The translations under genes and the position numbers were made by a program. A DNA stretch of 64,000 bases from Candidatus Thiodiazotropha sp. (lineage in GTDB: Bacteria > Pseudomonadota > Gammaproteobacteria > Chromatiales > Chromatiaceae), in contig JBEVVR010000034.1 of NCBI GenBank assembly GCA_040507035.1, positions 28,589-92,588 of the forward strand, written 5' to 3'. A model generated the notes under the pieces. The model saw nothing but the letters and a program-made list of their open reading frames with translations, did not search any database and was not told the origin of the DNA. Shown one piece after another: positions 6,367-64,000 of this stretch (its first letter is position 1; every line of letters begins with the position of its first letter).

Positions 6367-6376
6367 GGGGAGCACG

Positions 6377-22232: not shown

Positions 22233-22283
22233 CAGTGTTCTCCTATTTAGAAAATATCTCACAAACTATCAGTTAAGGAGCAG

Positions 22284-24803: not shown

Positions 24804-24898
24804 AACAGCCTCCTCGCATAAATGCTCAGTAATTTGATAAGTTATTGCCCAGTTTAGGTTGTCAATTCTGAAGATAAAGGCCACAATTCAGGAAACAC

Positions 24899-34661: not shown

Positions 34662-34674
34662 GGAGTTATAGAGT

Positions 34675-38161: not shown

Positions 38162-38605
38162 GGACCTTCGCCGTTACGCCTTCTCCGTGCACAAATGAAC
38201 AACCACACAGGGAGGTGTGGTCGTCTGATCCGCCCTGTTGATCCACTTGTTTCTTAAACACCGCTCAGAAGCATAGCCGCTTAATTGAACAGTTAAGACG
38301 GCGTTCTCCCGATGGAAGGTCAGTTTTACCCGACAAGCGGTACTTACCCTTCCAGATTACTCTCTGTAGTCTAATTTTGAACAGGGAGAGTTTCAGAATA
38401 TGGACTCAAGACAGGGATAGGCTTTGATACTATTTTGGTCCTACCGACCTATACCGATTGTCTCACCTTCATTTCTAAATCCTCCTCAATCAGCTCAGCG
38501 TGAAAACAGCGCTTGAGCGCTGGTCTCGCTTGGGACACTGAGTCGTTTTTTTATCTCCACTGCAGAGGTGCTTGCCTGCAGCAGGGCACAAGGGTGTGAA
38601 CATAC

Positions 38606-39181: not shown

Positions 39182-39183
39182 TC

Positions 39184-40035
39184 ATGTCTCGATCACAACA
39201 CCATCAGCATGGGTTCTCATTGATATCACTGATGATTGCCAGCGCCATCGGTCTGTTTATCGTCGGCGGTATCGGTAAGATCTATATCGATGGCAAGAAC
39301 GCCTTCAATGCAAGGGCTGCGATCGCCGCGGCGACCGAGTCCTACCGTTTCACCTTCCAGGAGATGCGTCGCAACCTGATCATGGCAGGCAGGGGAATTG
39401 CAACATCCGACGACAGCGCTTCAGCCTACACCGATGCCCAGAGTGATCAGGGCCTGCGCACCTTTCCTGCCGTAGATCGCACTCCCGATGGCATCGTCAG
39501 CGGCACCCAACAATCAGACGATGGCTGGAGTCCGGCACCGCAGGAGTCGAGTATTGTCGCGATACGTTATGCATCTGGCCCTACACCATGCGGTGCGGAC
39601 AATCTAGATATGAGTGCCGGCACGGTAACGGTCAGATTCATCGTCAATGAAACAGGCGACCTTAACTGCCAGGTCTTTCAAAACAATGCACTATTTGACT
39701 CACAACCCATTGCTGCTGGTGTTGCCCAGATGCGTGCCCTCTATGGTGTCGACACCGATGCAGAGCCCGATGGGGTGGCGAACCGATATCTGACCGCCGC
39801 AGAAGTCACATCGCTGAACTGGATGAACGTGGTCTCGATCAGAATAGGCCTGGTGGTCAATTCCGGAACCGGTTATGAGCTGCCAGGCGCCTATCGTCCG
39901 GAAACACCGGAACAGTTGGATCTGCTTGGCGCAACCTTCACTGCACCCGACACCGACTATATCTACAGATCAGCGACCACCACTATCTCATTACGCAACC
40001 TGCACCACATGGATCGTCAATTTGCCGAGGAGTGA
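39184..40035 (+). CDS. pilW: Minor pilin PilW, copy 2
   Basis: G|FSLISLMIASAIG; paralogous to 33343-34173; start ATG 39184. Confidence 0.82.
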   Translation: MSRSQHHQHGFSLISLMIASAIGLFIVGGIGKIYIDGKNAFNARAAIAAATESYRFTFQEMRRNLIMAGRGIATSDDSASAYTDAQSDQGLRTFPAVDRTPDGIVSGTQQSDDGWSPAPQESSIVAIRYASGPTPCGADNLDMSAGTVTVRFIVNETGDLNCQVFQNNALFDSQPIAAGVAQMRALYGVDTDAEPDGVANRYLTAAEVTSLNWMNVVSIRIGLVVNSGTGYELPGAYRPETPEQLDLLGATFTAPDTDYIYRSATTTISLRNLHHMDRQFAEE

Positions 40036-40044
40036 GAAGTCATC

Positions 40045-40557
40045 ATGCCGCTAAGCAGACTTATAAAAACAGATAGCAAACAAACCGGCGCCGCCCTGGT
40101 TATCAGTCTCGTGATTCTCACAATCGTTACCCTGCTAAGTGTTACAGCCATGCGCAACACCAATCTGGACACCAAGATCGCGGTCAACCATCAATTCAAG
40201 GAGATCAGCTTTCGCGCCGCCGAGAATGCACTGGCTATCGTCACCGGTCCGGAGTTGAGTGTCCTGGACAACCTGGACATACCCAATGTAGAGGGTGAAA
40301 TCACCCGCAGCGATCCATTCTTCACCACCCATGATGAGCTAGGAAATCCTCTCGAACCGGCTTTTTCCGATCAGCTTCCGATGCGCGCGAGTCTTACCAT
40401 GGAGTATCAGGGGGAGAGACAGGGACTCTTTTTTTCCGGACACCAGCTGGACAACACAACCCACCTGTTTCTTGTGGATGCTGTCGGTACCGTGGCTGAA
40501 AGCGCCACCCACACACAAAACCGAATGCAGGTCGGATTGATACGACAACAGCATTAA
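40045..40557 (+). CDS. pilX: Minor pilin PilX, copy 2
   Basis: G|AALVISLVIL; 'TKIAVNHQFKE.SF.AAENAL' shared with copy 1. Confidence 0.82.
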   Translation: MPLSRLIKTDSKQTGAALVISLVILTIVTLLSVTAMRNTNLDTKIAVNHQFKEISFRAAENALAIVTGPELSVLDNLDIPNVEGEITRSDPFFTTHDELGNPLEPAFSDQLPMRASLTMEYQGERQGLFFSGHQLDNTTHLFLVDAVGTVAESATHTQNRMQVGLIRQQH

Positions 40558-40574
40558 GAAATGGATCCATCCCT

Positions 40575-44681: not shown

Positions 44682-44757
<76 letters not shown>

Positions 44758-45100
44758 TATATATTCTATCATTCATATAATCAGACACTCACAAACCAGC
44801 ATCTCTTTTTAGTCACTCAGTATTACGCTGATTTTAAGAAAAAATAGTAATACTGATGCATCTTCTACCCATAACTATAATTCACCAATTCGGTCATATA
44901 TTTCGCTGTATTTATCACCAGTCCCCATGCGCGCAATGTAATTAATAGGGAATAGTGATAATCGACAATCCATTAGGTTTCATGGTCAACTTAATATATA
45001 TACCTAGTTGATCAACAGACAACTCAACAATATGTAACAAGAAAAAGATCAGCGTATACATTAGCAGTTCATTCTGCCATTAAGCCTTGCGATTTATTTC

Positions 45101-46162
45101 ATGACTTATTTAGAGAAATTATTTTCATTTTTTATTGGTTGTATTTTTTCATCCGTAGCTTGGTTTTATGGATTTACATTAATAACGCTTTCAGCTACTG
45201 GCGTCATATTCATTGCTTTTCTAATAATCAATGTTATGTTAGGTATCACTATTGATGAGAATATATTTTTGTCAATAATATACACAATATGTGGGATTAC
45301 AATCTCATATATTTTCCACGCGCCTGTACTACTTGCCGGTAGAAGATTATATCCATTTCGATTTGGACAAAAATCTAATAATAAATTTCATAGTAAAATA
45401 TTTATTGGAATGCTAATTTCAATATCTGCAGTTGCGGTAATAATGAATGATAATACGCCCTTTATCTACATGATAATTTTTGCAAGCGCAATTATTTACT
45501 ATGTCTTCTATGCTGATCAAATGATCTGGAAAGGAACTCCGAATGGAAGATTCGCTATTTTTCTAAGAAGGTTCGATAAAACAGGAGATAGGGCTGTATT
45601 TCCGGTAATTTTAAAAAAATTACCTCCTGATATGACATTAGTCCTTATTGTTGGCAGTGGAGGTTCAACCTGGGATCCATTTCCAATAATAACAGAAATA
45701 AAAAACGTTATATTCTTATCCAAAAGTGAAGACTGGGAACAACATATAAAGTTGCTCATTGAATCAGCATCTGTAATCATTCTTGATTATTCGGATGTTA
45801 GTGAGGCTATTGATTCAGAAGTAAGCTTCATAGTTGAAACAGAAGGGCTGGGGAAAACTATTTTTTTATATGATAAAAAGAACAAGAGCAAAGAAGCAAT
45901 CCCAGACCAAGCACTGCATTCAGTACCATATAAAAAGGGTATTTACAGCACCAATCTTTTACGTATGGTAATAGGTTTTGTTTTATTGGTTATTATTCCT
46001 CAGTATTTATACACGAAGATTTCCGGAAGTCCCGTACCAGGTCTTATTCCAACTGTAATTCTTGTGCTCATATGGGGCTGGTTATTTTTACGTCGTTATA
46101 TGGACCCATGGTCATCAAAATCCCTGGAACTGCATATACAAAGGATATTAGCTAGCCAATAG
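45101..46162 (+). CDS. AT-rich membrane protein with a central alpha/beta domain
   Basis: About four N-terminal and two C-terminal TM segments; soluble part 'IFLRRFD...EDWEQHIKLLIESASVIILDYS..SEAIDSEV'. Confidence 0.65.
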   Translation: MTYLEKLFSFFIGCIFSSVAWFYGFTLITLSATGVIFIAFLIINVMLGITIDENIFLSIIYTICGITISYIFHAPVLLAGRRLYPFRFGQKSNNKFHSKIFIGMLISISAVAVIMNDNTPFIYMIIFASAIIYYVFYADQMIWKGTPNGRFAIFLRRFDKTGDRAVFPVILKKLPPDMTLVLIVGSGGSTWDPFPIITEIKNVIFLSKSEDWEQHIKLLIESASVIILDYSDVSEAIDSEVSFIVETEGLGKTIFLYDKKNKSKEAIPDQALHSVPYKKGIYSTNLLRMVIGFVLLVIIPQYLYTKISGSPVPGLIPTVILVLIWGWLFLRRYMDPWSSKSLELHIQRILASQ

Positions 46163-46305
46163 GACACAAACAATAAACAAGACACCCACCTTTAAACCAC
46201 CAACTCAACACTCCCCAAACACCACACAAATCAGCACGGAAACCATTTAATGGGTGTCCCAGGAAACTATCAGGAAACTAGCCTCACGAATCATCGCCGC
46301 CTTGA

Positions 46306-46980
46306 TCACAGACATGAGCCATTAAATGACTCTCGTGATGCACTACACTTCAGTTGAATCAAGTACATGGGTTCGCTGGGTGGTGAATTGTGCGCAAACT
46401 CGATTAGTATTGCCATGTCCTGTGCAAGCAAAGACGTTAGAAATAGGCTTTGATGGGCGGTGCAATAGAACTCTTTTTCTCCATGCAGTTCATATATGTT
46501 TCCTGATTTTTGGACAATCGATCCTGGTGCGGGTGTGCGATTGACCGCTATATCAAAATACTCCGTATCTAACGCCAATTCCTTGCTCCTTACCGTAATG
46601 AGCGTTCGTCTCTGTGATGGCGTGCCCTCGGACGGGTTTTCCAGATCTTCGACAATGACCTGCACCTTGTAGCTGTAGCCCCATTCATATTCGAAGCCAT
46701 CGATAGGCCCGTCGAGCACCACCCATTCATCTTCAGGGCTTTCCCTTGCTCTCAAGCACAGCCCCACTGTAGTGCCGGTACACTCAGATTTGTAATGATC
46801 AATATATAACTCCCTGGTATTCCCTTTTCCAGATGGATTATTACAGCCACACAGGGCGGCTAATAGCACAGTTACGATGATGTGGAAAAAGAAGCCTTTA
46901 CAGATCTTTTGGGTCGGGTTGTGACAGATCGTCGCTATTGCTGGCCGTCGTTCTAACGAATACTTTCTTGTAGTCATCAC
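46306..46980 (-). CDS. DUF4377-domain lipoprotein
   Basis: Lipobox LCG-C; 'IDHYKSEC.G....CL....W....I.GFEYEWGYSY'. Start uncertain. Confidence 0.7.
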   Translation of the reverse strand: MMTTRKYSLERRPAIATICHNPTQKICKGFFFHIIVTVLLAALCGCNNPSGKGNTRELYIDHYKSECTGTTVGLCLRARESPEDEWVVLDGPIDGFEYEWGYSYKVQVIVEDLENPSEGTPSQRRTLITVRSKELALDTEYFDIAVNRTPAPGSIVQKSGNIYELHGEKEFYCTAHQSLFLTSLLAQDMAILIEFAHNSPPSEPMYLIQLKCSASRESFNGSCL

Positions 46981-47214
46981 ATTTTTTCCATGTTTCCATA
47001 CAAATGACCGACGAGATCAACTATAGTTGAGTTGTTGACCAATACAACTCTTCGCTTTAGTTTCTGTTTTTCATTACATACATGGGAATATAACGAGCTT
47101 GTAGAAAATCGCAGACTTTAAATTAATCTCACTTTCTGACTATACGCCGACTTGGCTTTTCGCAAATACCTAGCAACAGGCTCATGCAGCAGCGGATGAC
47201 CGCTAAGTTCATCG

Positions 47215-47370
47215 TCGGGCGCGAACCCAACACGTCACGGGTCGATTGTCTTCTGTTCGTCGTTTACACCATGATGCAACGAGGCAAGCACCATGGATGA
47301 GCAGGGTGCGCAAATAACTACGCCTTTCCTGACCAGTCAAGAAGCTCAAGGTAATCCTGCACTCGCGGGT
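47215..47370 (-). pseudogene. IS110-family transposase fragment
   Basis: Minus-strand frame reads ...GQERRSYLRTLLIHGACLVASW...RARR*, matching the IS110 C-terminal motif G..YLRTLLIHGA; no start or full ORF. Confidence 0.55.
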
Positions 47371-47451
47371 GAAGCTTAGCGACCCGCTGTCGTCGATGTC
47401 TATAGCTTTGAACTGAAAGTACTATAGCAATAGGAAGTACCCAGACATTAA

Positions 47452-49557
47452 TTAACTCATTCGAATAGGCAATTCATAACTTGACCTACCTGTTGCATTT
47501 AAAACAGCATTTGCAATGGCTGGGGCAAGTGGCGGCACACCAGGCTCTCCTATTCCCTCGGGATTCTCTGAGCTTTTCAATATATGCACTTCAATACTAG
47601 GAACTTCATCTAAACGAATGATAGGGTAGTTATAAAAGTTTTTTTGCTCTACCTGGCAATTGTTAACGGTAATCTTTGATTTAGTTGCTGCTGTAAGCCC
47701 CCAAATAATCCCTCCTTCCATTTGCTGCTTAACAATATCAGGGTTAACTGCCACACCACAGTCTACTACACAAAAGACTTTATGAAGCTTAAAACCATTT
47801 TCCTTAATCTTTTTGAGCATCACGACTTCTGCAACATAGCTTCCAAAGGTCCTAGCCGCAGCGATCCCGTAAATGTACTCCTCATTCGCCCTCTCACTCC
47901 AACCTGAAAGCTCTGCAACAGTCTCTATCACTTTACTTAACCGACTTGAATTTTTTAACAAATTCAAGCGATACTCGATTGGGTCATAGTTGCTTTGTAA
48001 CGCCAGTTCGTCTATTAAATGCTCAATGACATAAACATTGTAATGTGCACCTACAGATCGCCACGAACCCTTGCGCAGGTACTCCGGGCCATTTAGAACT
48101 TCGATTTTCTTATTTGGTATGTCATATAGATGATCAGCGCCTATTGCATTGACTCCTCCTCCCTTAATTATATGATGCCATGCTAACGGATAGCCTTGAT
48201 CATCTAGACATACTGAAATGTCATGCAGCGTTAGAGGATGAAAATAGTCCTGCTTTAAATCTTCCTCTCGGGACCAAACGTGCTGTACTGGATGCTTATA
48301 GCGTTTGGATATTTGAACTGATTCTGAAACATAATCATGCTGCAAGCGCCTTCCAAACCCTCCTCCTAAGTAGGTAGTATTGACATTAATCGTATCATCA
48401 TAACCTCCTAGGATATCATTTTTTAGTTGCCTTAGTTTCCGCTCTATTTTTGATTGAGCAATATTTTTAGCGACATCATAGACTCCGGATGGTGATTGAG
48501 TCGGTACCCATATTTCAACATCTCCATCATCTTTAAAATGCGTTGTGCAATTCATTGTCTCCATTGTCATATGGGCTTGGAAGGGCAGGATGTATTCACG
48601 TTTTACAATACGATTTGAAGATTTGAATACCTCATCGACATTCCCAAGAGTCTCCTCCTTTACTCTGCTGTTTTCATCTAATTGCCGAGTCTTATCGATT
48701 ATTGTCTCTGTATCCTGACATTCAACTTGCTCAGACCATTCGACAGCAAGTATCTTTGCGGCTTCAAAAACAGTCCACGTATCCTTTCCGACGATAGCCA
48801 CCCCTTGATCTATAGAAAACACATCTATTACTCCAGCCATGTTTGTTATTGAAGCTGGATCATAGCTAATCAACTTAGCGCCGATAAACGGAGGGTGCAC
48901 TACTGTTGAATATAATTGGTCTTTAAGTTTGATGTCCATACCAAACAGAGCAGTGCCGTTTACTTTGCTGACTAAATCTTTTCTTGGCACGGGTTTCCCA
49001 ATAATTGAAAATTCACTGATGTTTTTTAGTGAAACCTGTTCGTCAATTTCCAAGCCATCTGCTATAGGTATTAATTCTCCATAACTAATTTTTTTGTCAC
49101 CAGTAATCACGTACCCCTGCCCTGCCGTACAACGCTCCTTATCCACCTTAAAATGCAGTGCTCCGGCGCGGATAAATAATTCCCTCGTTAGCGCAGCTGC
49201 CAGCCTTAATTTACCCCACCCTCTTCTTATACTATTACTGCCTCCGGTGAACTGATAGCCATATACGGGATCTACTGACGCCCTCTCCACTAGCACTTTA
49301 TCCCAATTGACCTCAAGTTCTTCTGCGACCAACATAGGGAGTGCAGTATACGTCCCTTGCCCCATCTCTGATTCAGATACAATTACCGTTATAGTATTGT
49401 CTGGAGAAACTCTAATCCAAATATTAGGCATGAGGTTGTTGGATGTATTTTGTTTTTGTGATTCACAACCAACATTAACCCCTAAAAACAGGCTACCACT
49501 TGCTACCAGTCCAGAAACCTTTAAAAAATCTCTGCGAGAAATTGGTATTTGGTTCAC
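47452..49557 (-). CDS. iorB: Molybdopterin-binding subunit, isoquinoline/aldehyde oxidoreductase beta type
   Basis: Tat signal SRRDFLK, 'SEMGQG..T.L..LVAEEL', 'GGGFGRR', 'WRSVG', 'GIGEPGVPP.APAIANA'. Confidence 0.85.
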   Translation of the reverse strand: MNQIPISRRDFLKVSGLVASGSLFLGVNVGCESQKQNTSNNLMPNIWIRVSPDNTITVIVSESEMGQGTYTALPMLVAEELEVNWDKVLVERASVDPVYGYQFTGGSNSIRRGWGKLRLAAALTRELFIRAGALHFKVDKERCTAGQGYVITGDKKISYGELIPIADGLEIDEQVSLKNISEFSIIGKPVPRKDLVSKVNGTALFGMDIKLKDQLYSTVVHPPFIGAKLISYDPASITNMAGVIDVFSIDQGVAIVGKDTWTVFEAAKILAVEWSEQVECQDTETIIDKTRQLDENSRVKEETLGNVDEVFKSSNRIVKREYILPFQAHMTMETMNCTTHFKDDGDVEIWVPTQSPSGVYDVAKNIAQSKIERKLRQLKNDILGGYDDTINVNTTYLGGGFGRRLQHDYVSESVQISKRYKHPVQHVWSREEDLKQDYFHPLTLHDISVCLDDQGYPLAWHHIIKGGGVNAIGADHLYDIPNKKIEVLNGPEYLRKGSWRSVGAHYNVYVIEHLIDELALQSNYDPIEYRLNLLKNSSRLSKVIETVAELSGWSERANEEYIYGIAAARTFGSYVAEVVMLKKIKENGFKLHKVFCVVDCGVAVNPDIVKQQMEGGIIWGLTAATKSKITVNNCQVEQKNFYNYPIIRLDEVPSIEVHILKSSENPEGIGEPGVPPLAPAIANAVLNATGRSSYELPIRMS

Positions 49558-49567
49558 TTATACATCC

Positions 49568-50023
49568 TCATTCGCAATTTTTATCGCAATTCAATAATGC
49601 AGATTTCACTCTAGGATAAGTGCCACATCGACACAACACTCTGGACATCGCTCTATCGATATCTTCTTCATTTGGAGAGTTAGTCTTATCTAGTAAAGAG
49701 GCCGCCATGAGAATCTGGCCTGACTGGCAATATCCACACTGAGGAACCTGATGTTTGATCCAAGCCTGCTGAACTTTCTTTATATTTTGATTGTGCTCGG
49801 CCCCCTCAATCGTTACCACATCCTTATCTACACAATCGGATGCTTTTAAAATACAAGAATACTGGGGGTCTCCGTCTACCAACACCATGCAACTTCCACA
49901 AGCTCCGACACCACACCCGTATTTAGTACCAGTAAGCTTTAAATAATCTCGTAAAACCCAAAGCAGTGGAATATCGTCAGGCACACTGACTTCATGAACT
50001 TTTCCATTAATTGTTAAAATCAT
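49568..50023 (-). CDS. iorA: (2Fe-2S)-binding subunit, alpha type
   Basis: 'GTKYGCGVGACGSC', 'QCGYCQSGQ', 'CRCGTY'. Confidence 0.9.
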   Translation of the reverse strand: MILTINGKVHEVSVPDDIPLLWVLRDYLKLTGTKYGCGVGACGSCMVLVDGDPQYSCILKASDCVDKDVVTIEGAEHNQNIKKVQQAWIKHQVPQCGYCQSGQILMAASLLDKTNSPNEEDIDRAMSRVLCRCGTYPRVKSALLNCDKNCE

Positions 50024-50621
50024 TTATATATTAACCTTTTGTAAAAAACAGGAATGTTACATGAATCTTTTTCATCTCTCAGATGAAGTCCAAATAGTCA
50101 TTCACTAGCGTCTAAGAGGTATAGGGAGAATAACCGCAACTCTGCTACCTATCAAGGCAGAAAAACACAAATAAGACAGACACCCCCAAATTTCCCAATT
50201 GATACCCCCCTGCCCGGCTTTCAGCCGACAATTGTCATCCACATAACCATTAAAAATAGCTGTTTTTGAGCAAAAAATAGTGGCTCAAACAGATAAAATT
50301 CACACATCAACCAACCTCAATCCTCAACTAGGGCCTGATTCCCTCTCTAATTAGTTCTAGATACAATCTCCAGGTGAAATAGCGTAAAAAACAACACTAA
50401 AATAGTGCATTCGCAGATCATGCCCTCTTTGACAGGACTCTTTCAGCTTATAACTCGCACCCATAAAACCTTAGAATCGACTTTCGAAATTCAACACTGA
50501 TAGCTTTGACCGGTCAATGAAACCACACCACATAGAATGGCGGGGCAAACGCACCGGGAGGAGAGATTTCTTTATTGGATCCATCTTGGCAAATCAAGTA
50601 TGGATGTATTAGAGGGTTCAC

Positions 50622-53985: not shown

Positions 53986-55926
53986 ATGGAGGATGGCTTG
54001 ATGACAAATCTTTCTGTGTTTGGAACTAAGGCTGAACAAATACCAACCGCATTTGTACAGCGTTACGTGAGATTTTGTCTCCTCTTTGTCTGGCTTGTCC
54101 CTGCACTCATCCTGTTACCGGGCTGTAAACCCGCGTGTGACGACGGCGTTTGCGAGCTAGGCGAGACCTGTGAAACCTGTCCCCAGGATTGCGGTCAATG
54201 TGAACAGGACCCGGTTTGTGACGACGGCGTCTGCGATTTGGATGAAACCTGCGAGACCTGTCCCCAGGACTGCGGCCAATGTGAACAGCACCCGGTCTGT
54301 GACGACGGCGTCTGCGAATCAGGTGAAAGCTGTGATAGCTGTCCACAGGATTGTGGCGTCTGTCCGTCACTGTCGGTAAGCATCACTGCGCCTGTTTCCG
54401 GCGATGTTGTCTCCGGTCCGGTTACCGTCACGGCTGACGCCACTGATACAACCGGGGTGGCTGGTGTACAGTTTCAGCTCGATGGCATCTATCTCGCCGC
54501 GGAACAGCGAAACTTCCCGTACGAAATTGTGTGGGACACGACCACAATAGGCAACGGCGATCACACGCTGTCCGCCATCGCACGAAATGTCGTGGGAGAT
54601 CTCGAACTTTCCAATGAGGTTCAGGTCACCGTAGAGAATACAACACCTTCGGACGGCTTCCCCCCGGACGATCTCGGTCCTGCTCGTGGTGGTCTGGTCT
54701 CATCTGTTGCAGACGGCATGGGAGTGGGCATCGGCGTCAATCCCGGTGATGTGAGCACCTATGCCGATGAGATCCAGAACGCCGGATTCACCTGGGTGCG
54801 CTCGCGTCTGTTGTGGAAGGCCATCGAAACCACACCCGGCGTCTACAACTGGACCGTGGCACCGAACTACGATCGCATCGCCAATGAATTCAATAACCGA
54901 GGGATTGGTGTGCTGTTCATGGTTACCTACCACAACGATACAGCCTACTCCGGCCTGTCGGGTAATCCGCCGTTCAACGCCACCGGTCGGCGGAACTTCG
55001 GTAACTTCCTCAAGGCGGCGGCAGCCCACTTCAAAGGCAGGAAGATAATGTTCGAGATCGGTAACGAACCGAACATAAAACAGTTCTGGCCCGTGGACGC
55101 CAACAACAATGGATCGGTCACCATGACAGAGGTGCGCGACGCCGCGCGAGCATACGCCGAGTTGGCCAAGGTAGCCATCCCCATGGCGAAATCAGCGGAT
55201 GGGGATCCGGATGCGTTCATCATCGGCCCAAGTCTTGCCAATCGCGGCGGACCCTATATCGGTGGTGAGGTCGGCGCCCATGTTTACATACAAGAGCTTA
55301 AAGCCGCAGGCGCTCTCGAGCCATTATTCGATCGCATCAGCATTCATCTCTATACGGCAGAAGGTAGCTTTCCCCAGCAGAATATGCCGGATGGACAGGC
55401 CCCCGAGGATGCCCATATCGAACTGTTTCGAGATCTCATCGCCGACCCCAACGCCAACATGATCAACACCGAGCATGGTTGGAAATCTGATGGAAGCGCC
55501 CTTCAGGATCAGCTGCAAGCCAGCTTCAACATTCGGGACTTCATCTATGGACTATCCCAGGGGGTTCGCATGCGTTTCTGGTTCCTCTGGAGTCACTCGT
55601 CCGGCATGACGGATTGGTTCATCGCCGGCACGCCCGCGGCGGACGCCACCCGTATTCTCGATCGTGAGTTGGGCGATTTTCACATGCTGCGCCGCGTACC
55701 CAGCGCCAATCCGGAGCACTATGTCTTCGAATTCGCGGATACGGCAGGCAACCGACGCCTCTGCGCCTGGAAGGCAAATACCTCGACCCCGGATGTGTTC
55801 ACCTATCCTTCCACGGCGGACGCAACAGTGGTCAACCTCTACGGCAACGAAGAGAGTGTGTCTTCCAATGGCACGTCGATCTCGTTGAACTTGGAGATCC
55901 ACCCTGTATATGTACGATTGCCATAA
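53986..55926 (+). CDS. Lipoprotein: three Cys-rich repeats + Ig-like domain + clan-A glycoside hydrolase (GH5/GH39-like) domain
   Basis: Lipobox LPG-C; 3x CDDGVC..GE.C..CPQDCG.C; Ig-like 'VSITAPVSGDVVSG.V.V.A.A.D..GVAGVQF'; acid/base 'EIGNEPN' and nucleophile 'INTEHGW'. Start uncertain. Confidence 0.75.
   Translation: MEDGLMTNLSVFGTKAEQIPTAFVQRYVRFCLLFVWLVPALILLPGCKPACDDGVCELGETCETCPQDCGQCEQDPVCDDGVCDLDETCETCPQDCGQCEQHPVCDDGVCESGESCDSCPQDCGVCPSLSVSITAPVSGDVVSGPVTVTADATDTTGVAGVQFQLDGIYLAAEQRNFPYEIVWDTTTIGNGDHTLSAIARNVVGDLELSNEVQVTVENTTPSDGFPPDDLGPARGGLVSSVADGMGVGIGVNPGDVSTYADEIQNAGFTWVRSRLLWKAIETTPGVYNWTVAPNYDRIANEFNNRGIGVLFMVTYHNDTAYSGLSGNPPFNATGRRNFGNFLKAAAAHFKGRKIMFEIGNEPNIKQFWPVDANNNGSVTMTEVRDAARAYAELAKVAIPMAKSADGDPDAFIIGPSLANRGGPYIGGEVGAHVYIQELKAAGALEPLFDRISIHLYTAEGSFPQQNMPDGQAPEDAHIELFRDLIADPNANMINTEHGWKSDGSALQDQLQASFNIRDFIYGLSQGVRMRFWFLWSHSSGMTDWFIAGTPAADATRILDRELGDFHMLRRVPSANPEHYVFEFADTAGNRRLCAWKANTSTPDVFTYPSTADATVVNLYGNEESVSSNGTSISLNLEIHPVYVRLP
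54136..54366 (+). repeat. Three 81-bp coding repeats (27-aa Cys-rich units)
   Basis: Units start at 54136, 54217 and 54298. Confidence 0.9.
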
Positions 55927-56433: not shown

Positions 56434-57173
56434 CTTAGGAAGTTAAGCATATTAGGATTGATGCGAAATTCAAACATGATTGGCAAAAACAGATATTACA
56501 AGCGATCCCGAATTACAGAAAAGAAATTTCGTTTGATTATCCGATATTTTGCTCTCGACATTTCCGCATCAGACACTGCAAGGTTAACTGGAATTTCCGT
56601 GCGTTCGATTAATCCCATCTACATTAAATTACGCACTCGCCTGTCTGAAGAATGCGAAAGACTGGCTCAGTATAAAGGGATTAGCGAAACCATTGGTACC
56701 TGTTGCAGGAAAAATATGGCCCACAATAATACTGATAATAATGGAGACTGCAAAACAATGTTATTTGGTATTATCAAACAAAACGGATGGGTATATACCG
56801 AGATAATACCCGGCGATAGTAAGCAGATTCTGCAAAGTGTCATGCGAGACAAATTGAAACTAGATAGCCGTATCCATCCAGATGGCAGGCGTGAATATCA
56901 AGGTTTGATAGACATGAGTCGCGCAAAGTACTATCACATCCAAAACAGAGACAGTCACTCAGTGAGTATAAACTCAAAAATCAATGGCAGTGAAACATTT
57001 TGGGCTTATGCAAAACTGCGTTTGAGTAAAATGAAAGGCATCCGTCATGGTATGTTTTACTTCCATTTAAAAGAGACAGAATTTCGTTTTAATCATCGTC
57101 GTGAAGACGTCTATCCACTTGTTTTAAAACTACTGCGAGAGAATCCTATTTGAAACCTTTGGCTTCCTAAGAC
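56434..57173 (+). mobile_element. IS1595-family element with degenerate ends
   Basis: cttaggaagtta (56434) and cttcctaagac (57163) flank a transposase-like ORF in inverted orientation. Confidence 0.6.
56461..57153 (+). CDS. IS1595/ISXO2-like transposase derivative, apparently lacking the first catalytic Asp
   Basis: 'KNRYYKRSRITEKKFRLIIRYFALD' HTH region, 'IHPDG', 'INGSETFWAYAK', 'FHLKETEFRFNHR'. Confidence 0.75.
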   Translation: MRNSNMIGKNRYYKRSRITEKKFRLIIRYFALDISASDTARLTGISVRSINPIYIKLRTRLSEECERLAQYKGISETIGTCCRKNMAHNNTDNNGDCKTMLFGIIKQNGWVYTEIIPGDSKQILQSVMRDKLKLDSRIHPDGRREYQGLIDMSRAKYYHIQNRDSHSVSINSKINGSETFWAYAKLRLSKMKGIRHGMFYFHLKETEFRFNHRREDVYPLVLKLLRENPI

Positions 57174-57415
57174 ATCAACCCAGGTGCCGTCTTATAAATA
57201 TATTTTTCCGCCCTCACTTCCCTTGTAAGCTGCGTATATTGATGAATAGTTGACTGACGCTAACCGAATTTCTCTGATTTCATATTTTTTACTAATCTCC
57301 TTTTCTCTATCACAGCATCCATACCTTTTTTGATTTTTTTATTCATCAGCCTGCCCCCTGATTACTAACTATAATAGGTGGAGTTGCATAATTATCTGTC
57401 AATATGAGTAATAAC

Positions 57416-57737
57416 GGTCTTAGGAATTTAAAATTGTATTTTTATCCTTTCTCAACAATAAACCTTCAACCAAACATATATCCGAAATTGATAAAGTAAC
57501 ATATCTAACTAGAATATAGTGCTCATTCATCGACCAATATATATTTAACGATGTTTTTTACCGATTGATCCACAATATCTTCAGTTATCGCAAGAGCGCT
57601 ATAAGTTTCTATTGATAAAAATAATGCGAACAAATAATGATATTTTTAATCAATGGTTAGGCAAATAACCCAGCTCACTTTTTTTAAACATTTTCTCAAG
57701 TTAACTTCACTCAACAGTTACATAACTTCCTAAGACC
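57416..57737. mobile_element. MITE-like element with IS1595-type terminal inverted repeats
   Basis: ggtcttaggaattta ... taacttcctaagacc (14 of 15 match) around a 322-bp AT-rich interior with no convincing ORF. Confidence 0.55.
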
Positions 57738-58253
57738 CCATAGAAACAACCACTGAAATCAATACTCCCAACAAGTCCAACCGGTATGATTTGTCTTTTT
57801 TTATAACAACAAATGTTCAATCAAATTTTGTTGCTGTAATACTATACAGTACTTTTAACAGCCAACCACTAATCGGGTACTTACCACCGCTCATTCTTCT
57901 GCATCTTGTCAACTAAAATTCAAAGATTAAAACTAACCCGTCACTTGAACATGGGCACTTACTTAGTAGGTTTCCAACTGTCAGTAATTTGAATTTTTAA
58001 TAATGACAGATGCATTCTGTGACACGAGTCAGAGAAATTTACAAATGGATAAATAATCTATCTGAATCTAAAAAAACAGAAATAGAAATAAGCAAAAAAA
58101 ATTGACGACCTTGTGTTGTCGGTATTGTGCAATATTTGTACATGTCATGCTTTAGATAATACAGGTTCTTTTTAACGGCCTGCTTTCCAGACATGATCAA
58201 CACGCACTGGATATCGCATCAAAATATGCACATCGCACTAAGGAGAGGTTTCG

Positions 58254-61200
58254 ATGCATCTAAAGCAAAGGCGAATATTTTCCACGCAATCAGTACTGGT
58301 CTCATTACTTGTTCTTTTCACTGTACTGATCCATTCCACACAAGCACAGGCCACGTCCAGACTACTCAATAGCTGGCAGGCGGCTTATCCCAACTCATTA
58401 AGTGACGATAATCTTGCCGATCCCTGCACATTATGTCACAGCGACAATAGTTATAGTGAACTCAATGGCTATGGTTGGGACATGGATAGAATAAGTAATG
58501 ACTATTCTGCATTGGAATCTCTGAATTCAGACAATGATCCCAACAACACAAGTAACCTTGATGAGATCAATGGCAATACCCAACCAGGTTGGACCGCAGG
58601 TGCAAACAATGTCATCAACGGTGGTTCGGTAACCAGTAACGCATCACCTGCCCAGATAATCGCCGGCTTGCATGATCCAGAAGTAATCAACCAAGCACCA
58701 GTAGCGGATATCGGTGGCCCCTACAGTGGCACTCAGAATATTGAGCTAAGCTTCGATGCATCGAACTCCACAGACATAGACGGCATCATCACCGACTATG
58801 CCTGGGACTTTGGGGATGGCAGCAGTGGTAATGGAGTACAGGTTTCACATATCTACACAGCAACAGGAAACTTCAATGTCACATTGATTGTAACTGACGA
58901 CCAGGGCAACAGTACCACAGCATCCACTTCGGTTATGATTGGTGCTGGCAATCTGCCTCCTGTTGCCTATGCCATGGGGCCATACACCAGTCAAGTGGGT
59001 GAAGCGGTTAGCTTCGACGGCAGCGGCACGACCGACGCAGACGGAACGATTGTCAGTTATGATTGGAATTTTGGTGATGGCAGCTTCGGAACAGGCGTCA
59101 GTCCTACCCATGCCTACTCAGCCAGCGGCACATACAACGTCACTCTGACAGTGACCGATGATAACAATGCGGTGGATTCCGATGTCACTTCGGTCAGTGT
59201 TGAACAGGCCAATCAGGCACCAACAGCAGATCCTCGTGGCCCCTATACAGGCACAGTCAATACCGCTGTTACCTTCGATGCATCCGCTTCCAGTGATGCG
59301 GATGGTCAAATAAGCAGCTATCAATGGGATTTTGGTGACGGTACTACCGGCACAGGAGTAAATCCGTCGCATACCTATGCAGTTGCAGATGTCTATAACA
59401 TCACCCTGCAAGTGACTGACAACAACGGTGCTAGCGCTACCGCCACCACCACCGCCACGATTGGTGATGTGATCAAGGAGCCACCTACCGCCGTTGCCGG
59501 TGGACCATATACCGGCACTGTCAACCAAACTCTTGAATTAAGTGCCAGTGGCAGCACCGATCCTGACGGCCAAATCACCAGCTATACCTGGGACTTAGGT
59601 GATGGCAATTCAGCAAACGGTAGCAATGTCTCTCACACCTATAGTGATGCCGGGACTTTCAACATTACGCTTACTGTTACAGATAATGATGGCATCATGG
59701 ATACCGCCACAACCACGGCGGTTATCGGCTTGGGCAACCTATCGCCAACAGCTGACGCAAAGGGTCCCTATACAACGACCATTGGAACAAATGTCAATTT
59801 TGACGGCAGTGGCTCAGTAGATCCCGATGGCACTATTGTCGCGTATGACTGGGACTTTGGAGACAACTCAACAGGCACCGGGCCGAAACCATCCCATTCC
59901 TATAGTGCGGAAGGAACCTACAACGTAACACTTACCGTCATTGATGACAGTGGCGCCATGGACTCAGCAGCCACTACTGTAACTGTAACTTCCAATGAGG
60001 ACCCGGAGATTGTCGGTTCTGCGGAAATCACTAAGAAGTTTAACTGGGGCAGAGGTTTTCTGGGAATCGGCACCATCAACAATGATTCAAATAAGCCAAT
60101 TAACATGTGGGAGATCAGTTTCGGTGCGGATTTCGAAATATACCGTATCTGGGGAGCAAAGGTTCTTTCTCACACCGATGGCATCTATATCATTACCGCA
60201 AAAGGAGACAATCAATCCATTCTTCCTGGTGAGATGGTGAGATTCGCCTTTATTGCCGGGCCAGGGGATAGCCCGATTCCTGACGAAATAGCCTTGGTTG
60301 ACAGGGGTGAGTCAACACCGGGTAGCGGTAATCAGGAGGTCCAGACTGAAGTCACGATGGAGTCTGTCAATGAGTGGAGGAAGGGCTTTCAGGGCATGGG
60401 GTCTATACACAATACCGGTGATGAGCTGATAGATGGCTGGACCCTGAGTTTCGATGCTGACTTTGAGATTAAAAGGTTATGGAATGCCAGGATAGTTTCT
60501 CACTCAGAAAATAGGTATGTGTTGTCGGGAAAACGGCGGAGCAAAATAATAGAACCCGGTAAAGCTGTGACTTTTGGTTTCATTGCAACACCCAGCGGAT
60601 CCTTAATGCCCACTCATTTCTTGGTGAATGGGTCTGAGAGTAATGCAGGAGATGATTCCGATACTGGTGATAATTCAGATAGCGGGGATGACGCTGATAC
60701 CGGGGATGACGCCGATACCGGGGATGACGCTGATACCGGGGATGACGCTGATACCGGAGATGACGCTGATACCGGAGATGACGCTGATACCGGGGATGAC
60801 GCTGATACCGGGGATGGCAACGATACCGGGGATGGCGCTGATACCGGAGATGACGCTGATACCGGGGATGACGCTGATACCGGGGATGGCAACGATACCG
60901 GGGATGGCAACGATACCGGGGATGGTAACGATACCGGGGATGGCAACGATACCGGGGATGGCAACGATACCGGGGATGGCACCGATACCGGGGATGGCAC
61001 CGATACCGGGGATGGCACCGATACCGGGGATGGCACCGATACCGGAACCACTGTCGGCGGGCTCGATTGCTCAGGTGCGGTCTTTGGCTCCTCAGGAGCG
61101 CCGATTCGACGCCTGACTCACACCGAATACCAAAATAGTGTCGCCAGTCTGTTCCCAGGCGTGTCCCTGCCAAGCCTGAATCTACCTGTCGATCAACGCA

Positions 61201-62594
61201 TGAATGGATTTACCAATGCAGCTGAAGGTCAAGCACCGTCGGCATTAAGTGTCGATCAGTACGCTACTGCTGCGGAGTCCATTGCCGCAGCAGCAGTCCA
61301 GTCCCTGGGGAGTTGGGCGCCATGCAATGACAGCAATGATGCGGCATGCGCACGTCGAGCGCTAAGCGCTATCGCGCCACGTATCTACAGGCACCCCCTG
61401 TCGACTGAGGAGAACACTGCTATTGACACCTTGATGGAAGGTGCTCTGAATACGGCCACGCCACAGGAGGCCCTCGGCCTGGCACTCACCGGGCTGCTCG
61501 AATCACCAAGCTTTCTCTATCGTCCTGAGTTTGGTACCTCCAACGCCATAGGCAACGCTAGGGAGCTGGATGCCTATGAACTTGCTTCACGCCTATCCTA
61601 CTTCTTCTGGAGAGACATACCTGATGACGAACTGTTGGCGGCAGCAGCGGATGGCAGTCTGCTGACAGACAGTGTCCTTCGCGCCCAGGCAAATCGCTTA
61701 TTGAACGATTCCCGAGCCAGACCGGTGTTGACTGACTTCTTCGTTCAGTGGCTCGGCTTGTACAAGCTCGATACCATGTCCCTTGACGCCGCCGCATTTC
61801 CTGAATTTGACACTGCACTGCGCAGCGACCTGAAGGCATCAGCGGTGAGTTATGTTGAGCATGCCCTGTGGAACGCGGACTCCTGGTCTGTTCTTATGTC
61901 TGGCAGCTATGGTTATGTCAATAACCGCCTGGCGCCGATCTTCGGTGTGCCTGCCCCGAATAGTGACCAACTGGTTCAGCTGAATCTGAACATGAGCGAG
62001 CGGGCAGGTGTACTGACTCAACCCGGCACCCTGGCCTCAACATCCCACGATGCCCGTCACTCACCCATCTTGCGTGGCGTGCAGTTCCTCACCGGGATTG
62101 TCTGTGCTCCCCCGCCAGCACCTGCCGCAGGTGTCGGGATGCCTGACGAGGATCTTGTTGTCGATGAATCGCAGGTGTGCACCACTCGCGATGAAGTTGC
62201 GATGAAACACAGTGCCTCCGCTGGTTGCTCTGCCTGCCATGATGCAATCGATAGCGCCGGATTCAATTTCGAAAATTACGATGCACTGGGTCGTTACCGT
62301 ACCGTGGAAAACGGTTGTCAAGTGGATGCCACGGGCAGTTTCGCAGGCACCGACATTACCGGTGTGTTACAAAATGCCGTTGACCTGGCGTTACAGCTAC
62401 CCACGAGTCGAACGGTAAGCAGCTGCATGACAGAACACATGTTCCGTTTTGCACTTGGCCGTAACGATAAGAGTCAGGATGCTTGCGAAATCTCAAGTCT
62501 CAGTAACCAACTGACAACTACAGATAGCATGCAATCATTGGTGATCGAACTTGTGATGTCACCTTCTTTCCGCAGCCGTCCAAGCACCAACTAA
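58254..62594 (+). CDS. 1446-aa secreted multidomain protein: monoheme cytochrome c, 5x PKD, 2x CBM2-like, acidic repeat linker, DUF1587/1595/1592/1588/1585-type module with a second CxxCH
   Basis: Signal peptide; CTLCH; five 'P.A...GPY.......FD.S...D.DG.I..Y.W.FGDG' units; two Trp-patterned CBM2-like units; 'IRRLTHTEYQNSV', 'LDAYELASRLSYFFWRDIPD', 'SPILRG', 'CSACHDAIDSAGFNFENYDALGRYR'. Confidence 0.82.
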   Translation: MHLKQRRIFSTQSVLVSLLVLFTVLIHSTQAQATSRLLNSWQAAYPNSLSDDNLADPCTLCHSDNSYSELNGYGWDMDRISNDYSALESLNSDNDPNNTSNLDEINGNTQPGWTAGANNVINGGSVTSNASPAQIIAGLHDPEVINQAPVADIGGPYSGTQNIELSFDASNSTDIDGIITDYAWDFGDGSSGNGVQVSHIYTATGNFNVTLIVTDDQGNSTTASTSVMIGAGNLPPVAYAMGPYTSQVGEAVSFDGSGTTDADGTIVSYDWNFGDGSFGTGVSPTHAYSASGTYNVTLTVTDDNNAVDSDVTSVSVEQANQAPTADPRGPYTGTVNTAVTFDASASSDADGQISSYQWDFGDGTTGTGVNPSHTYAVADVYNITLQVTDNNGASATATTTATIGDVIKEPPTAVAGGPYTGTVNQTLELSASGSTDPDGQITSYTWDLGDGNSANGSNVSHTYSDAGTFNITLTVTDNDGIMDTATTTAVIGLGNLSPTADAKGPYTTTIGTNVNFDGSGSVDPDGTIVAYDWDFGDNSTGTGPKPSHSYSAEGTYNVTLTVIDDSGAMDSAATTVTVTSNEDPEIVGSAEITKKFNWGRGFLGIGTINNDSNKPINMWEISFGADFEIYRIWGAKVLSHTDGIYIITAKGDNQSILPGEMVRFAFIAGPGDSPIPDEIALVDRGESTPGSGNQEVQTEVTMESVNEWRKGFQGMGSIHNTGDELIDGWTLSFDADFEIKRLWNARIVSHSENRYVLSGKRRSKIIEPGKAVTFGFIATPSGSLMPTHFLVNGSESNAGDDSDTGDNSDSGDDADTGDDADTGDDADTGDDADTGDDADTGDDADTGDDADTGDGNDTGDGADTGDDADTGDDADTGDGNDTGDGNDTGDGNDTGDGNDTGDGNDTGDGTDTGDGTDTGDGTDTGDGTDTGTTVGGLDCSGAVFGSSGAPIRRLTHTEYQNSVASLFPGVSLPSLNLPVDQRMNGFTNAAEGQAPSALSVDQYATAAESIAAAAVQSLGSWAPCNDSNDAACARRALSAIAPRIYRHPLSTEENTAIDTLMEGALNTATPQEALGLALTGLLESPSFLYRPEFGTSNAIGNARELDAYELASRLSYFFWRDIPDDELLAAAADGSLLTDSVLRAQANRLLNDSRARPVLTDFFVQWLGLYKLDTMSLDAAAFPEFDTALRSDLKASAVSYVEHALWNADSWSVLMSGSYGYVNNRLAPIFGVPAPNSDQLVQLNLNMSERAGVLTQPGTLASTSHDARHSPILRGVQFLTGIVCAPPPAPAAGVGMPDEDLVVDESQVCTTRDEVAMKHSASAGCSACHDAIDSAGFNFENYDALGRYRTVENGCQVDATGSFAGTDITGVLQNAVDLALQLPTSRTVSSCMTEHMFRFALGRNDKSQDACEISSLSNQLTTTDSMQSLVIELVMSPSFRSRPSTN
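60645..61040 (+). repeat. In-frame 18-bp tandem repeat, 22 units (TGDDAD/TGDGND/TGDGTD)
   Basis: Counted directly: 20 regular units plus 2 degenerate leading units, 396 bp in total. Confidence 0.95.
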
Positions 62595-62607: not shown

Positions 62608-64000
62608 ATGACTAAACGAATCAATCGCAGAACCGCTCTCAAATTGATGGCTGGTACTACCGCCGGCGCCTCGCTTCCCTGGTTGTTCAGTCCCAGTGCG
62701 CGAGCAGCAACAGGGGTGCCATTGCGTATCCTTTTCATCGAGGTCGAATGGGGTGCCCGTCGCGGGAGCTGGGAACCCACCGTTGCCGGCCCACAGATGG
62801 TGCCCCAGGATCAAGTCGATACCGCATGGGCATTCCGCGACAAGATGCGCATGCTCGACCCCTATCGAAACCGTACCACGATATTTCAGAATCTGGATAT
62901 GCTGAGTGCCAAAGTCGATCCGACGGGACCTGCTAATGCCCATTTTGATGGGATGACGCAAATGCTGACAGCGGACAACCGGGTTTCTGCCGAACTTGGT
63001 AACGGGCCTTCCATCGACCAGTTCATCGCGCAGCAACTGGCTGCCAACGGGGTTGCCACTCGCTTGCAGTCCCTTGAGCTGCGTGCGACACCTGACGCCA
63101 GTCAATGGTCTCGCAGCGAAAGTTATCACGCCTACTCGGCACCTGGTCAGCAGGTGCCCTTTATGACCTATGTGCCGGACGTGTGGGATCGCTTGTTCCC
63201 GACCCCACTCGATCCTGGCGCGACAGTTCAAACGCCGGCCCAGACCCGAAGAACCCTGCTGCACACATTTGTTCGTGGCGAGTATGACCGCTTACTGACC
63301 AATGTGAGTTCTGAAGATCGTATCAAGCTCACGCAGATGCGCGACCTGCGAAGCGATCTCTACAATGCCGCGAATGTGGTCAGTGGACGCGACGCCTTCC
63401 GCCCATCACAGGCTTCGATCATCGATCCCTGGTCGCAGTTGGATGAGGGCTATGAAAAAGGCAACCCAAACAATCCGACCTGGCGGGTACATTGTGAGCT
63501 GATGGCGCAATTGGCAGCTGCTGCACTGCACACCGATACAACACGGGTTGTCAATCTGTCGTTCACCCGGCCACCGGACTATGAGTTTGGTTATAACAAT
63601 GGAGATTATGGCACTTCCGACAGCCACGCCCTCTACCATGAGGTGTGTGGCGATACCCCAACACTCACAAATTCGACTGCTGTTTCGACCGTCGACGCAT
63701 CGGATAAGCGTGGTTATGACCAGGTTCGCTACACCCTCGATTTCCTTGACAGTCTTCAGGAGACGGATGGAACCAGCCTGCTTGATAACACATTGGTTGT
63801 CGTCCACTCACAATTATCAGATGGTAGTCACGATCTGACACGTCTTCCCTGGCTGGTGATCGGTGATGCGCAAGGCTACCTTAGGACAGGTCAGTACATC
63901 CGCTTCCAGGCAATCAACCATAGAGACGGCCAGACAGTAACCGATGCTGACACCAACTTCCCTTACATATGGAATGGCGCCGGCCGCCCTCACAACGACC
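62608..64000 (+). CDS. Tat-exported DUF1552-type protein (3' truncated by window edge; missing from the supplied ORF track)
   Basis: AGGAG RBS; ATG 13 bp after the previous stop; MTKRINRRTALKL twin-arginine signal; 'GPSIDQFIAQ', 'TRVVNL', 'DGTSLLDNTLVV..SQLSDGSH...LPWLVIG', 'PHND'. Confidence 0.8.
   Translation, partial: MTKRINRRTALKLMAGTTAGASLPWLFSPSARAATGVPLRILFIEVEWGARRGSWEPTVAGPQMVPQDQVDTAWAFRDKMRMLDPYRNRTTIFQNLDMLSAKVDPTGPANAHFDGMTQMLTADNRVSAELGNGPSIDQFIAQQLAANGVATRLQSLELRATPDASQWSRSESYHAYSAPGQQVPFMTYVPDVWDRLFPTPLDPGATVQTPAQTRRTLLHTFVRGEYDRLLTNVSSEDRIKLTQMRDLRSDLYNAANVVSGRDAFRPSQASIIDPWSQLDEGYEKGNPNNPTWRVHCELMAQLAAAALHTDTTRVVNLSFTRPPDYEFGYNNGDYGTSDSHALYHEVCGDTPTLTNSTAVSTVDASDKRGYDQVRYTLDFLDSLQETDGTSLLDNTLVVVHSQLSDGSHDLTRLPWLVIGDAQGYLRTGQYIRFQAINHRDGQTVTDADTNFPYIWNGAGRPHND

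Follow-up and report, generated by a model that had tools for sequence, protein, structure and literature searches.

A composite CxxCH, PKD and CBM2 protein with a DUF1592-series module, encoded beside DUF1552 in a Candidatus Thiodiazotropha genome

Introduction

Cbp2D of Cellvibrio japonicus is annotated as CBM2-X158-FN3-X183-DUF1587-X132, and proteins combining X183 with X132 occur across Planctomycetota (Branch et al., PMC8981238, Spreadsheet S1). Growth on insoluble cellulose requires the genes cbp2D and cbp2E, a cbp2D knockout being impaired on this substrate, and a role beyond electron donation to lytic polysaccharide monooxygenases (LPMOs) has been proposed for their products (Kakacek et al., PMC12542752). 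Two proteins of Teredinibacter turnerae, TERTU_3803 and TERTU_2913, also end in DUF1587 and X132, the latter a domain with a CxxCH motif and no characterised homologue (Rajagopal et al., PMC10916295). A Cellvibrio CBM2 protein found in a lignocellulose metaproteome is named 'DUF1592 domain-containing protein' by NCBI (PMC6004670), and PSCyt3 proteins that carry carbohydrate-binding modules (CBMs) beside DUF1552 genes, function unknown, were described in 2017 (PMC5615132). Here we consider a gene of this kind, at 58254-62594 on the forward strand of a 64,000-nt stretch of contig JBEVVR010000034.1 from Candidatus Thiodiazotropha sp. (assembly GCA_040507035.1; the whole stretch is called the window below). 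The host is a sulfur-oxidising, chemoautotrophic gill symbiont of lucinid clams.

The encoded protein of 1446 residues comprises, in order, a Sec-type signal peptide, an N-terminal module with a CxxCH haem-attachment motif, five PKD domains, two CBM2 domains, an acidic linker and a C-terminal DUF1592-series module with a second CxxCH. Every domain that an earlier sequence-only reading had named is present at the coordinates given below, and all the Pfam matches exceed their gathering scores. In common with Cbp2D and the two TERTU proteins, the window protein is a predicted secreted protein of several domains with CBM2, long linkers, an upstream c-type haem motif and DUF1587 followed by a large CxxCH module, and both T. 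turnerae and the window host are gill symbionts of bivalves. The link to Cbp2D-type proteins drawn in that reading is supported. Unlike Cbp2D, the window protein has no X158 (which is YceI-like; Pfam gives no YceI match) and no FN3, with five PKD and two CBM2 domains instead, and its upstream haem-motif module is not X183. The order is also reversed: haem motif, stalk and then CBM in the window protein, whereas in Cbp2D the CBM comes first. Published annotations make it highly probable that X132 corresponds to DUF1595-1592-1588-1585, in which case the window protein would fall into the functional class of Cbp2D. The suggestion that the architecture had not been described does not stand, with the layouts of Cbp2D, TERTU_3803 and TERTU_2913 (PMC8981238, PMC10916295) and the CBM-bearing PSCyt3 proteins beside DUF1552 (PMC5615132) already published. 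This is a further variant within a known kind of protein, resembling Cbp2D in outline; the host, a chemoautotrophic symbiont, is new.

The other close comparison is with the PSCyt3/PSD 'Group III' proteins and their DUF1552 partners in Planctomycetota, Verrucomicrobiota and Myxococcota. These share with the window locus the series PSD3-PSD5-PSD4-PSCyt3-PSD2, an invariant CxxCH and an adjoining DUF1552 with a twin-arginine (RR) signal, and some members carry CBMs. The nearest relatives in this group, however, are about 550 residues long, are mostly predicted lipoproteins and lack CBM, PKD and second haem motif, whereas the window protein is 2.6 times longer and belongs to a gammaproteobacterial sulfur-oxidising symbiont. 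In concept the protein is also like fungal cellobiose dehydrogenase, in which a haem domain on a flexible linker and a CBM tether to cellulose serve oxidative polysaccharide cleavage, a parallel also drawn in the supplement of PMC5615132. The two have no kinship in sequence or fold, the haem here would be c-type and not b-type, and there is no flavin dehydrogenase domain.

The pairs of PSCyt/PSD with DUF1552 (and DUF1501) proteins rank with the commonest sets of proteins of unassigned function in Planctomycetota, Verrucomicrobiota and Myxococcota, and genetic evidence shows that bacteria need Cbp2D-type proteins to grow on insoluble cellulose. We propose, with a probability of roughly 0.55, that the DUF1592 module and the neighbouring DUF1552 protein form a surface-tethered two-protein redox unit that acts, like Cbp2D, as an accessory to polysaccharide breakdown. 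Although the locus alone is not enough to reveal what PSCyt3 and DUF1552 do, it is a clean natural experiment, with one head, two cassettes and an exchanged anchor, and it points to a capability unexpected in a chemosynthetic symbiont.

Results and Discussion

One N-terminal half on two cassettes

Directly after the gene lies a co-oriented gene for a DUF1552 (HXXSHH) protein (PF07586, E 2.9e-32; 62608 to 64000, +, running past the window end). It starts 13 nt past the stop codon and has its own AGGAG ribosome-binding site. Its product opens with a twin-arginine signal (NRRTALKLM...ARA), and the full-length protein in the Thiodiazotropha relatives has 502 residues. A DUF1552 gene with an RR signal is directly downstream in all eight related loci examined, among them those of Thiodiazotropha 6PLUC2, 6PLUC1 and CTENA6, those of the homologues P0013 and P0017, and those of two free-standing metagenome relatives of the C-terminal module. 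Judged by this gene order, the pairing is obligatory, and the partner, which had been overlooked in the sequence-only reading, is the strongest functional clue at the locus. DUF1552 had no match in the PDB by phmmer or by a six-sequence profile. Its conserved motifs include an 'RILFIE' strand and 'LLDNTLVV..S..DGSHD', which to the eye look like alkaline-phosphatase/sulfatase signatures, a possible likeness offered as a lead and not as a result.

The nearest full-length homologue, P0001 of Candidatus Thiodiazotropha sp. 6PLUC2, is 71% identical over 100% of the length and is named in the database just 'PKD domain-containing protein'. A genome scan recovered the C-terminal module in CTENA6 (91% identity) and 6PLUC1 (85%), and the cassette DNA is 76-85% identical. 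When the protein is compared part by part, its relatives are discordant. The N-terminal module, the five PKD domains, the two CBM2s and the C-terminal module are 79%, 81%, 67% and 85% identical to those of P0001 and 53%, 69%, 45% and 31% identical to those of P0013. Free-standing relatives of about 550 residues, which have no counterpart of the first three parts, match the C-terminal module at 58% (P0125), 52% (P0133 and P0128) and 48% (P0152); the named ones are Polyangiaceae, Nannocystales and Sandaracinus, all Myxococcota. The relatedness of DUF1552 tracks the C-terminal module and not the N-terminal half: the window DUF1552 is 59% identical to the partner of P0125 and 50% identical to that of P0128 (498-499 residues, near the 502 of Thiodiazotropha), compared with only 22-28% for the partners of P0013 and P0017 (426-428 residues).

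These discordant identities indicate that one N-terminal half sits on two distinct cassettes, each made of a DUF1592 module and a DUF1552 protein. The joining of one head to two complete cassettes strongly indicates, by comparison, that both proteins within a cassette function jointly, and their joint movement and evolution as a two-gene unit argues for a physical partnership. The proposal that the protein had been fused at the repeat, with a myxobacterial-like C-terminal half, is borne out by the discordance of its N- and C-terminal parts and by the myxococcal origin of the named free-standing relatives. GC content at third codon positions is 0.43-0.50 in the N-terminal half, 0.56 in the C-terminal module, 0.59 in DUF1552 and 0.62-0.68 in the core genes of the window, values that agree mildly with a composite origin.

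The free-standing relatives also suggest what the N-terminal half replaced. Most have a G/S-rich tether behind a signal peptide and lipobox Cys, and then a conserved Cys and (A/D)P(I/L)RRLT; a strict pattern finds the lipobox and tether layout in 76 of 109 of them, and more are found by eye. Where the lipid anchor would be, the window protein has the acidic repeat and the half with the CBM2s, PKD domains and haem motif. The lineage thus appears to have swapped the anchor of the DUF1592 module from a membrane lipid to a polysaccharide bound by CBM2, and from the layouts compared we infer that the module always sits at the end of a flexible tether. Together, the tether found throughout and the exchange of anchor point to action at a surface.

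Upstream of the gene lies an IS1595-family transposase reading frame or remnant (56458-57153, +; Pfam DDE_Tnp_IS1595), separated from it by an AT-rich non-coding spacer of about 1.1 kb (57154-58239; 33-39% GC). In a promoter and terminator scan of this spacer, candidate sites, promoter-like ones included, were no commoner than in shuffled sequence. A homologous IS1595 piece precedes the cassette in CTENA6 (L005, 1163-1873), in L001 (8659-9078) and in L006, the latter two covering 6PLUC1 and 6PLUC2, while the wider neighbourhoods of the cassette differ among these relatives. The shared insertion sequence (IS) piece and spacer, found despite the differing neighbourhoods and in mild agreement with composition, suggest that the cassette was acquired and moved as a block.

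Integrity of the gene

The gene (58254-62594, +) is a frame of 1446 codons and a stop, open throughout from its ATG, with the ribosome-binding site AAGGAGAGG at 58240-58248 (+), 5 nt ahead of the ATG. The acidic linker is encoded by an 18-nt unit repeated 20.4 times (60678-61045), so the protein could in principle be an assembly artefact, two unrelated genes joined at a tandem repeat, or else a decaying pseudogene. The junction lies inside a 368-nt repeat of perfect period, beyond the span of short reads, and a search for public reads of the source strain found none. In a related mollusc metagenome checked for reads over the repeat, only short low-depth contigs were found, none spanning the linker. 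An IS remnant also lies upstream, and one relative, that of CTENA6, has a 1-nt frameshift past its first CxxCH. Against these points, the order of N-terminal half, linker and C-terminal module recurs in P0001 (6 contigs), 6PLUC1, CTENA6, P0013 and P0017, with linkers that are wholly different from one another, one of them short, Pro-rich and without repeat. The 1446 codons run without interruption, and the C-terminal module is 85-91% identical between Thiodiazotropha species. With the architecture found in at least five other assemblies on mutually unrelated linkers, misassembly is very unlikely and the gene is genuine; we regard the artefact or pseudogene explanation as highly improbable, and the copy number of the repeat alone appears uncertain. 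The full fusion is rare, a handful among 5.8 billion protein clusters, all from Thiodiazotropha or related metagenome-assembled genomes (MAGs).

The frameshift in the CTENA6 orthologue (L005, about 3220-3240) falls right after the N-terminal CxxCH region, where the frame ending in AVLES and a stop resumes as LNSDNDP in another frame. The cause is either an error in the MAG sequence or recent decay into a pseudogene.

The C-terminal DUF1592-series module

All five domains of the C-terminal series are present on the forward strand in canonical order: PSD3/DUF1587 (residues 952-1015, 61107-61298; E 2.9e-14, 53.7 bits against a cut-off of 23), PSD5/DUF1595 (1032-1092, 61347-61529; 3.2e-12, 47.0 against 34.2), PSD4/DUF1592 (1105-1232, 61566-61949; 1.9e-36, 125.8 against 23.3), PSCyt3/DUF1588 (1250-1351, 62001-62306; 3.7e-23, 82.1 against 27) and PSD2/DUF1585 (1373-1439, 62370-62570; 9.7e-12, 44.9 against 25.8). 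The CSACH motif within PSCyt3 (residues 1325-1329; 62226-62240, +) is at the position that had been claimed for it, as is the N-terminal CTLCH at nt 58425. In an alignment of 40 diverse DUF1592 modules this CxxCH (C393/C396/H397) is invariant, and so are H387, R342/G343 and several cysteines. The invariant cysteines probably form disulfides, which would suit an oxidising compartment.

An AlphaFold2 (AF2) model of the module is mainly helical and very confident, with a predicted local distance difference test (pLDDT) score of 92.6 and a predicted template-modelling score (pTM) of 0.91. A Foldseek search of this model against the PDB gave a best E of 1.9 and TM scores of at most 0.12, with no resembling entry, and PDB sequences searched with a profile likewise yielded no match.

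In P0013 (residues ~990-1125) and P0017 (loci L003 and L004) an extra beta-sandwich matching PF16841 is inserted within the DUF1592 series, and in P0017 another domain, of about 250 residues, lies between the CBM2s and DUF1587. Such inserts suggest that the tethered module tolerates insertions.

The N-terminal CxxCH module

The predicted Sec signal that had been claimed is borne out by the translation (residues 1-33; 58254-58352, +), which runs MHLKQRRIF...HSTQAQA with TS after the putative cleavage site and has no lipobox Cys. It is followed by a module of residues 34-145 (58353-58688, +), with CTLCH at residues 58-62 (58425-58439, +), the acidic loop SLNSDNDPNNTSNLDEI, which is like a calcium-binding loop, and a QPGWT.G.NN motif. 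An exhaustive profile search places this module in a family of 1075 clusters (at 50% identity) with E<=1e-3, 292 of them with E<=1e-10; the members include P0243-P0391. The family consensus is w...YP.S.s..n....C.LCH.......N.YGw....a.E...SD.Dp.g..Nl.EI.a.tQPGWt.G.nN. The CxxCH motif occurs in 148 of the 150 family representatives, and all 165 aligned domains have its His. In these representatives the module almost always begins straight after the signal peptide, at a median position of residue 34. Since the N- and C-terminal CxxCH motifs are each conserved in their families, neither is there by chance.

Neither Pfam nor NCBIfam holds a family for the module, a result that includes a Pfam scan of 40 members. 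The sole marginal signals were Temptin_C and EF-hand models, on the acidic loop of a relative with seven tandem copies. That relative, P0243, looks multihaem, with loops of EF-hand type. The module is thus an uncatalogued and new family of about 1,000 clusters, from which the extra haem motif of the Thiodiazotropha lineage derives, and haem c binding by the module is very probable. As for the 'cytochrome' of the sequence-only reading, the conserved CxxCH in an exported domain holds, whereas no known cytochrome c fold and no conserved Met or His as sixth ligand were found; conserved candidates for that position are Y12, Y40 and E71. The AF2 model of the module has a pLDDT of 82.5.

Two assignments were considered and set aside. 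The module does not appear to be an X183-type cytochrome, for it has no PDB match in sequence or fold and the structures of CjX183 and TtX183 (2021, 2024) fall within the span of the PDB copies searched. A specific coupling of the module to DUF1592 or DUF1800 modules, prompted by the DUF1800 in P0354, was dropped after a census of 133 representatives in which the partners are mostly adhesin-like. These partners comprise PKD (26), ASH/HYDIN-Ig (15), DUF1573 (9), Big_9 (8) and CBM2 (3), as well as cadherin-like, CARDB and dockerin domains, and the DUF1592 series is outside the 25 commonest. On this census the module is a general N-terminal 'head' of secreted or surface proteins.

This census bears on a different explanation of the protein, in which it would be a factor for surface attachment and colonisation. 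The PKD stalk, the CBM2 pair and perhaps the Asp-rich tether would fasten the cell, whether free-living or host-associated, to plant detritus, the roots of seagrass, chitin or the surfaces of a host, and the haem-motif modules would serve sensing or structure and not polysaccharide chemistry. The overwhelming fusion of the N-terminal family to adhesin-like domains fits such a role, as do P0250 and P0244, which join the N-terminal module to PKD or CBM2 without a DUF1592 module (P0244 is possibly truncated). Lucinid symbionts are described as acquired from the environment (PMC6461927), and two type IV pilus clusters with PilY1 lie in the window. An attachment factor, however, leaves unexplained both the intact DUF1592 module with its DUF1552 partner, where the C-terminal module is 85-91% identical between Thiodiazotropha species and the CBM2s 67-74%, and the recruitment of two different cassettes to one N-terminal half. 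We consider this explanation unlikely and favour the two-protein redox unit.

PKD stalk, CBM2 pair and linker

The five tandem PKD domains occupy residues 146-583 (58689-60002, +; Pfam PKD_4 five times, E 1.6e-114, 374.7 bits). They are followed by two CBM2 copies (Pfam CBM_2 twice, E 2.3e-22), at residues 588-690 (60015-60323, +), also aligned with Cex, and 697-799 (60342-60650, +). By phmmer, the second copy matches solved CBM2s, among them that of ScLPMO10C (6F7E, 1.4e-9), the CBM2a of Cex (1EXG, 7e-8) and chitinase CBM2s. The surface Trp residues that had been reported in these domains are partly confirmed. The equivalents of W17 and W54 of Cex are kept in both copies, together with the conserved buried Trp, whereas the equivalent of W72 is Asp in copy 1 and Arg, inside a KRR patch, in copy 2. 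This loss is common to P0001 and CTENA6, while the third Trp is kept in P0013, P0017, P0244 and P0246. The disulfide that joins the N and C termini of CBM2a is missing throughout the clade, and copy 1 has no terminal Cys pair. In comparison with the CBM2a domains of Cex and ScLPMO10C, then, the window domains share Pfam and phmmer identity, W17, W54 and the buried Trp but have neither three coplanar surface aromatics, with the W72 equivalent lost twice, nor the terminal disulfide. That both CBM2s are without the third surface Trp is a new observation, and the glycan specificity of the CBM2s in this lineage is uncertain.

The linker that had been described as acidic and 132 residues long is just that: residues 801-932 (60654-61049, +) hold 53 Asp (40%), 33 Gly and 26 Thr and carry a net charge of -53. 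Its sequence is unlike that of every homologue, with varied D/N/G/T/E repeats among the relatives. The linker of P0013 is short and rich in Pro and Asp, and that of P0017 consists of GGNTGGDT repeats with an extra inserted domain. Linkers are Asp/Glu-rich in P0001 and CTENA6 too and Pro-rich or Gly/Thr-rich in the lineage of P0013 and P0017. Besides being a spacer, the polyanion might conceivably bind Ca2+ or mineral.

These features allow a further explanation, namely that the system is redox or hydrolytic and works on a substrate that is neither plant polymer nor chitin but, for example, a sulfur compound, peroxide, metal, mineral or anionic polymer of the host. In that case the degenerate CBM2s and the polyanionic linker would do no more than position the system. 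Consistent with this are the loss of the W72 equivalent in both CBM2s, the basic KRR patch in the second, the linker charge of -53, and the absence of any CBM from most DUF1592/DUF1552 pairs, the nearest relatives included. The sulfur-oxidising host also encodes FccAB in the window, and KatG is nearby. On the other side, the CBM2 scores are well above threshold and two binding-face Trp residues are kept, sister proteins with complete CBM2s adjoin genes for GH5, GH10 and esterase, and Cbp2D provides a genetic precedent for a role in cellulose use (PMC12542752). Such a substrate is in our view doubtful, and a Cbp2D-like accessory for polysaccharide breakdown remains the reading that we prefer.

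Proposed function

We predict that the product of the first gene is exported by Sec and so becomes accessible to haem attachment by Ccm; the haem-attachment gene CcmH is in the window at 4-786. DUF1552 would be exported folded by Tat and bound, as a working partner, by the tethered DUF1592 module. The CBM2 pair would dock the complex on an insoluble beta-glycan, for example cellulose or chitin. Electrons would pass, in one direction or the other, between the C-terminal haem, which the N-terminal haem may supply, and either DUF1552 or an oxidative enzyme close by. Haem loading at both CxxCH motifs, the glycan bound, the direction of the electrons and the reaction are elements that we infer, and an extracellular location would need a type II secretion step.

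Several observations weigh against this proposal. Neither haem-motif module has a solved or characterised relative, so that chemistry is not transferable to them; the N-terminal module in particular has no PDB match by sequence or by Foldseek of its AF2 model, its family alignment offers neither a conserved Met nor a second His for the sixth ligand position, and in the census it is attached mostly to adhesin-like beta-sandwiches and not to redox modules. The kinship with Cbp2D passes through a putative equivalence of X132 with the DUF1595-1585 region, which is drawn from annotations. The third planar-face Trp is lost in both CBM2s, which may weaken or alter binding to crystalline cellulose. 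No LPMO gene was seen within the window, the neighbours of the pair in Thiodiazotropha 6PLUC2 are unrelated to glycans, and a search for public expression data for the gene found none.

A bolder version of the model would have the DUF1592 module and Tat-exported DUF1552 constitute an unrecognised, LPMO-independent oxidative system at insoluble surfaces, wired by the new class of small exported haem domain found at the N terminus. We hold this to be quite improbable. Were it true, a chemoautotroph living in clams would possess a portable cassette, associated with an IS, with which to attack polymers of plants or chitin, and a function could be assigned to the hundreds of orphan PSCyt3/DUF1552 pairs known from Planctomycetota and Myxococcota.

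Gene neighbourhood

Genes for plant-cell-wall enzymes adjoin some relatives of the pair. After the pair in the P0013 locus (L003) come a ricin-lectin esterase, a GH5 protein with a ricin lectin domain and an esterase, and a GH10 xylanase with a ricin lectin domain; after that in the P0017 locus (L004) comes a CBM2x2-GH5 protein whose CBM2s are also of the Cys-less type. In the window, a divergent 646-residue GH5-like protein (53986-55926, +; Cellulase, E 2e-8, a weak match) is encoded 2.3 kb upstream, beyond the IS remnant. It has three Cys-rich repeats (CDDGVCxxGExCxxCPQDCGxCE) and a Big_7 domain and shows no similarity to the GH5 genes beside the P0013 and P0017 homologues. On gene order, the link with plant-cell-wall enzymes is real for the family and weak for this locus. 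Sulfur-oxidising symbionts of lucinids thus carry, next to GH5 and GH10 genes, proteins apparently directed at plant cell walls, which is relevant to the free-living phase of these bacteria in seagrass sediments.

The gene content of the window otherwise fits a sulfur-oxidising gammaproteobacterium, with FccAB flavocytochrome c sulfide dehydrogenase (5695-7663), a multihaem cytochrome, CcmH and KatG. A cluster at 21660-24884 (-), 36 kb from the gene, encodes a YceI-like protein (21660-22262) along with cytochrome b561, a pirin and an FMN reductase of flavodoxin type; the X158 domain of Cbp2D and Cbp2E has the YceI fold. Genes for type IV minor pilins (GspH/FimT-like, PilV-like, PilW, PilX) form two consecutive sets at 32313-43400 (+), and the last gene of each set (34675-37758 and 40575-43400) encodes a large PilY1-like protein that contains a VWA domain. 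The only Rfam match in the window is a tRNA gene at 44682-44754. Past it, within 44682-50500, are low-GC genes for a molybdopterin-binding oxidoreductase (47452-49557; GC 0.41, third-position GC 0.36) and a [2Fe-2S] subunit (49568-50023), and the window from the tRNA to its end may be a mosaic, horizontally acquired region.

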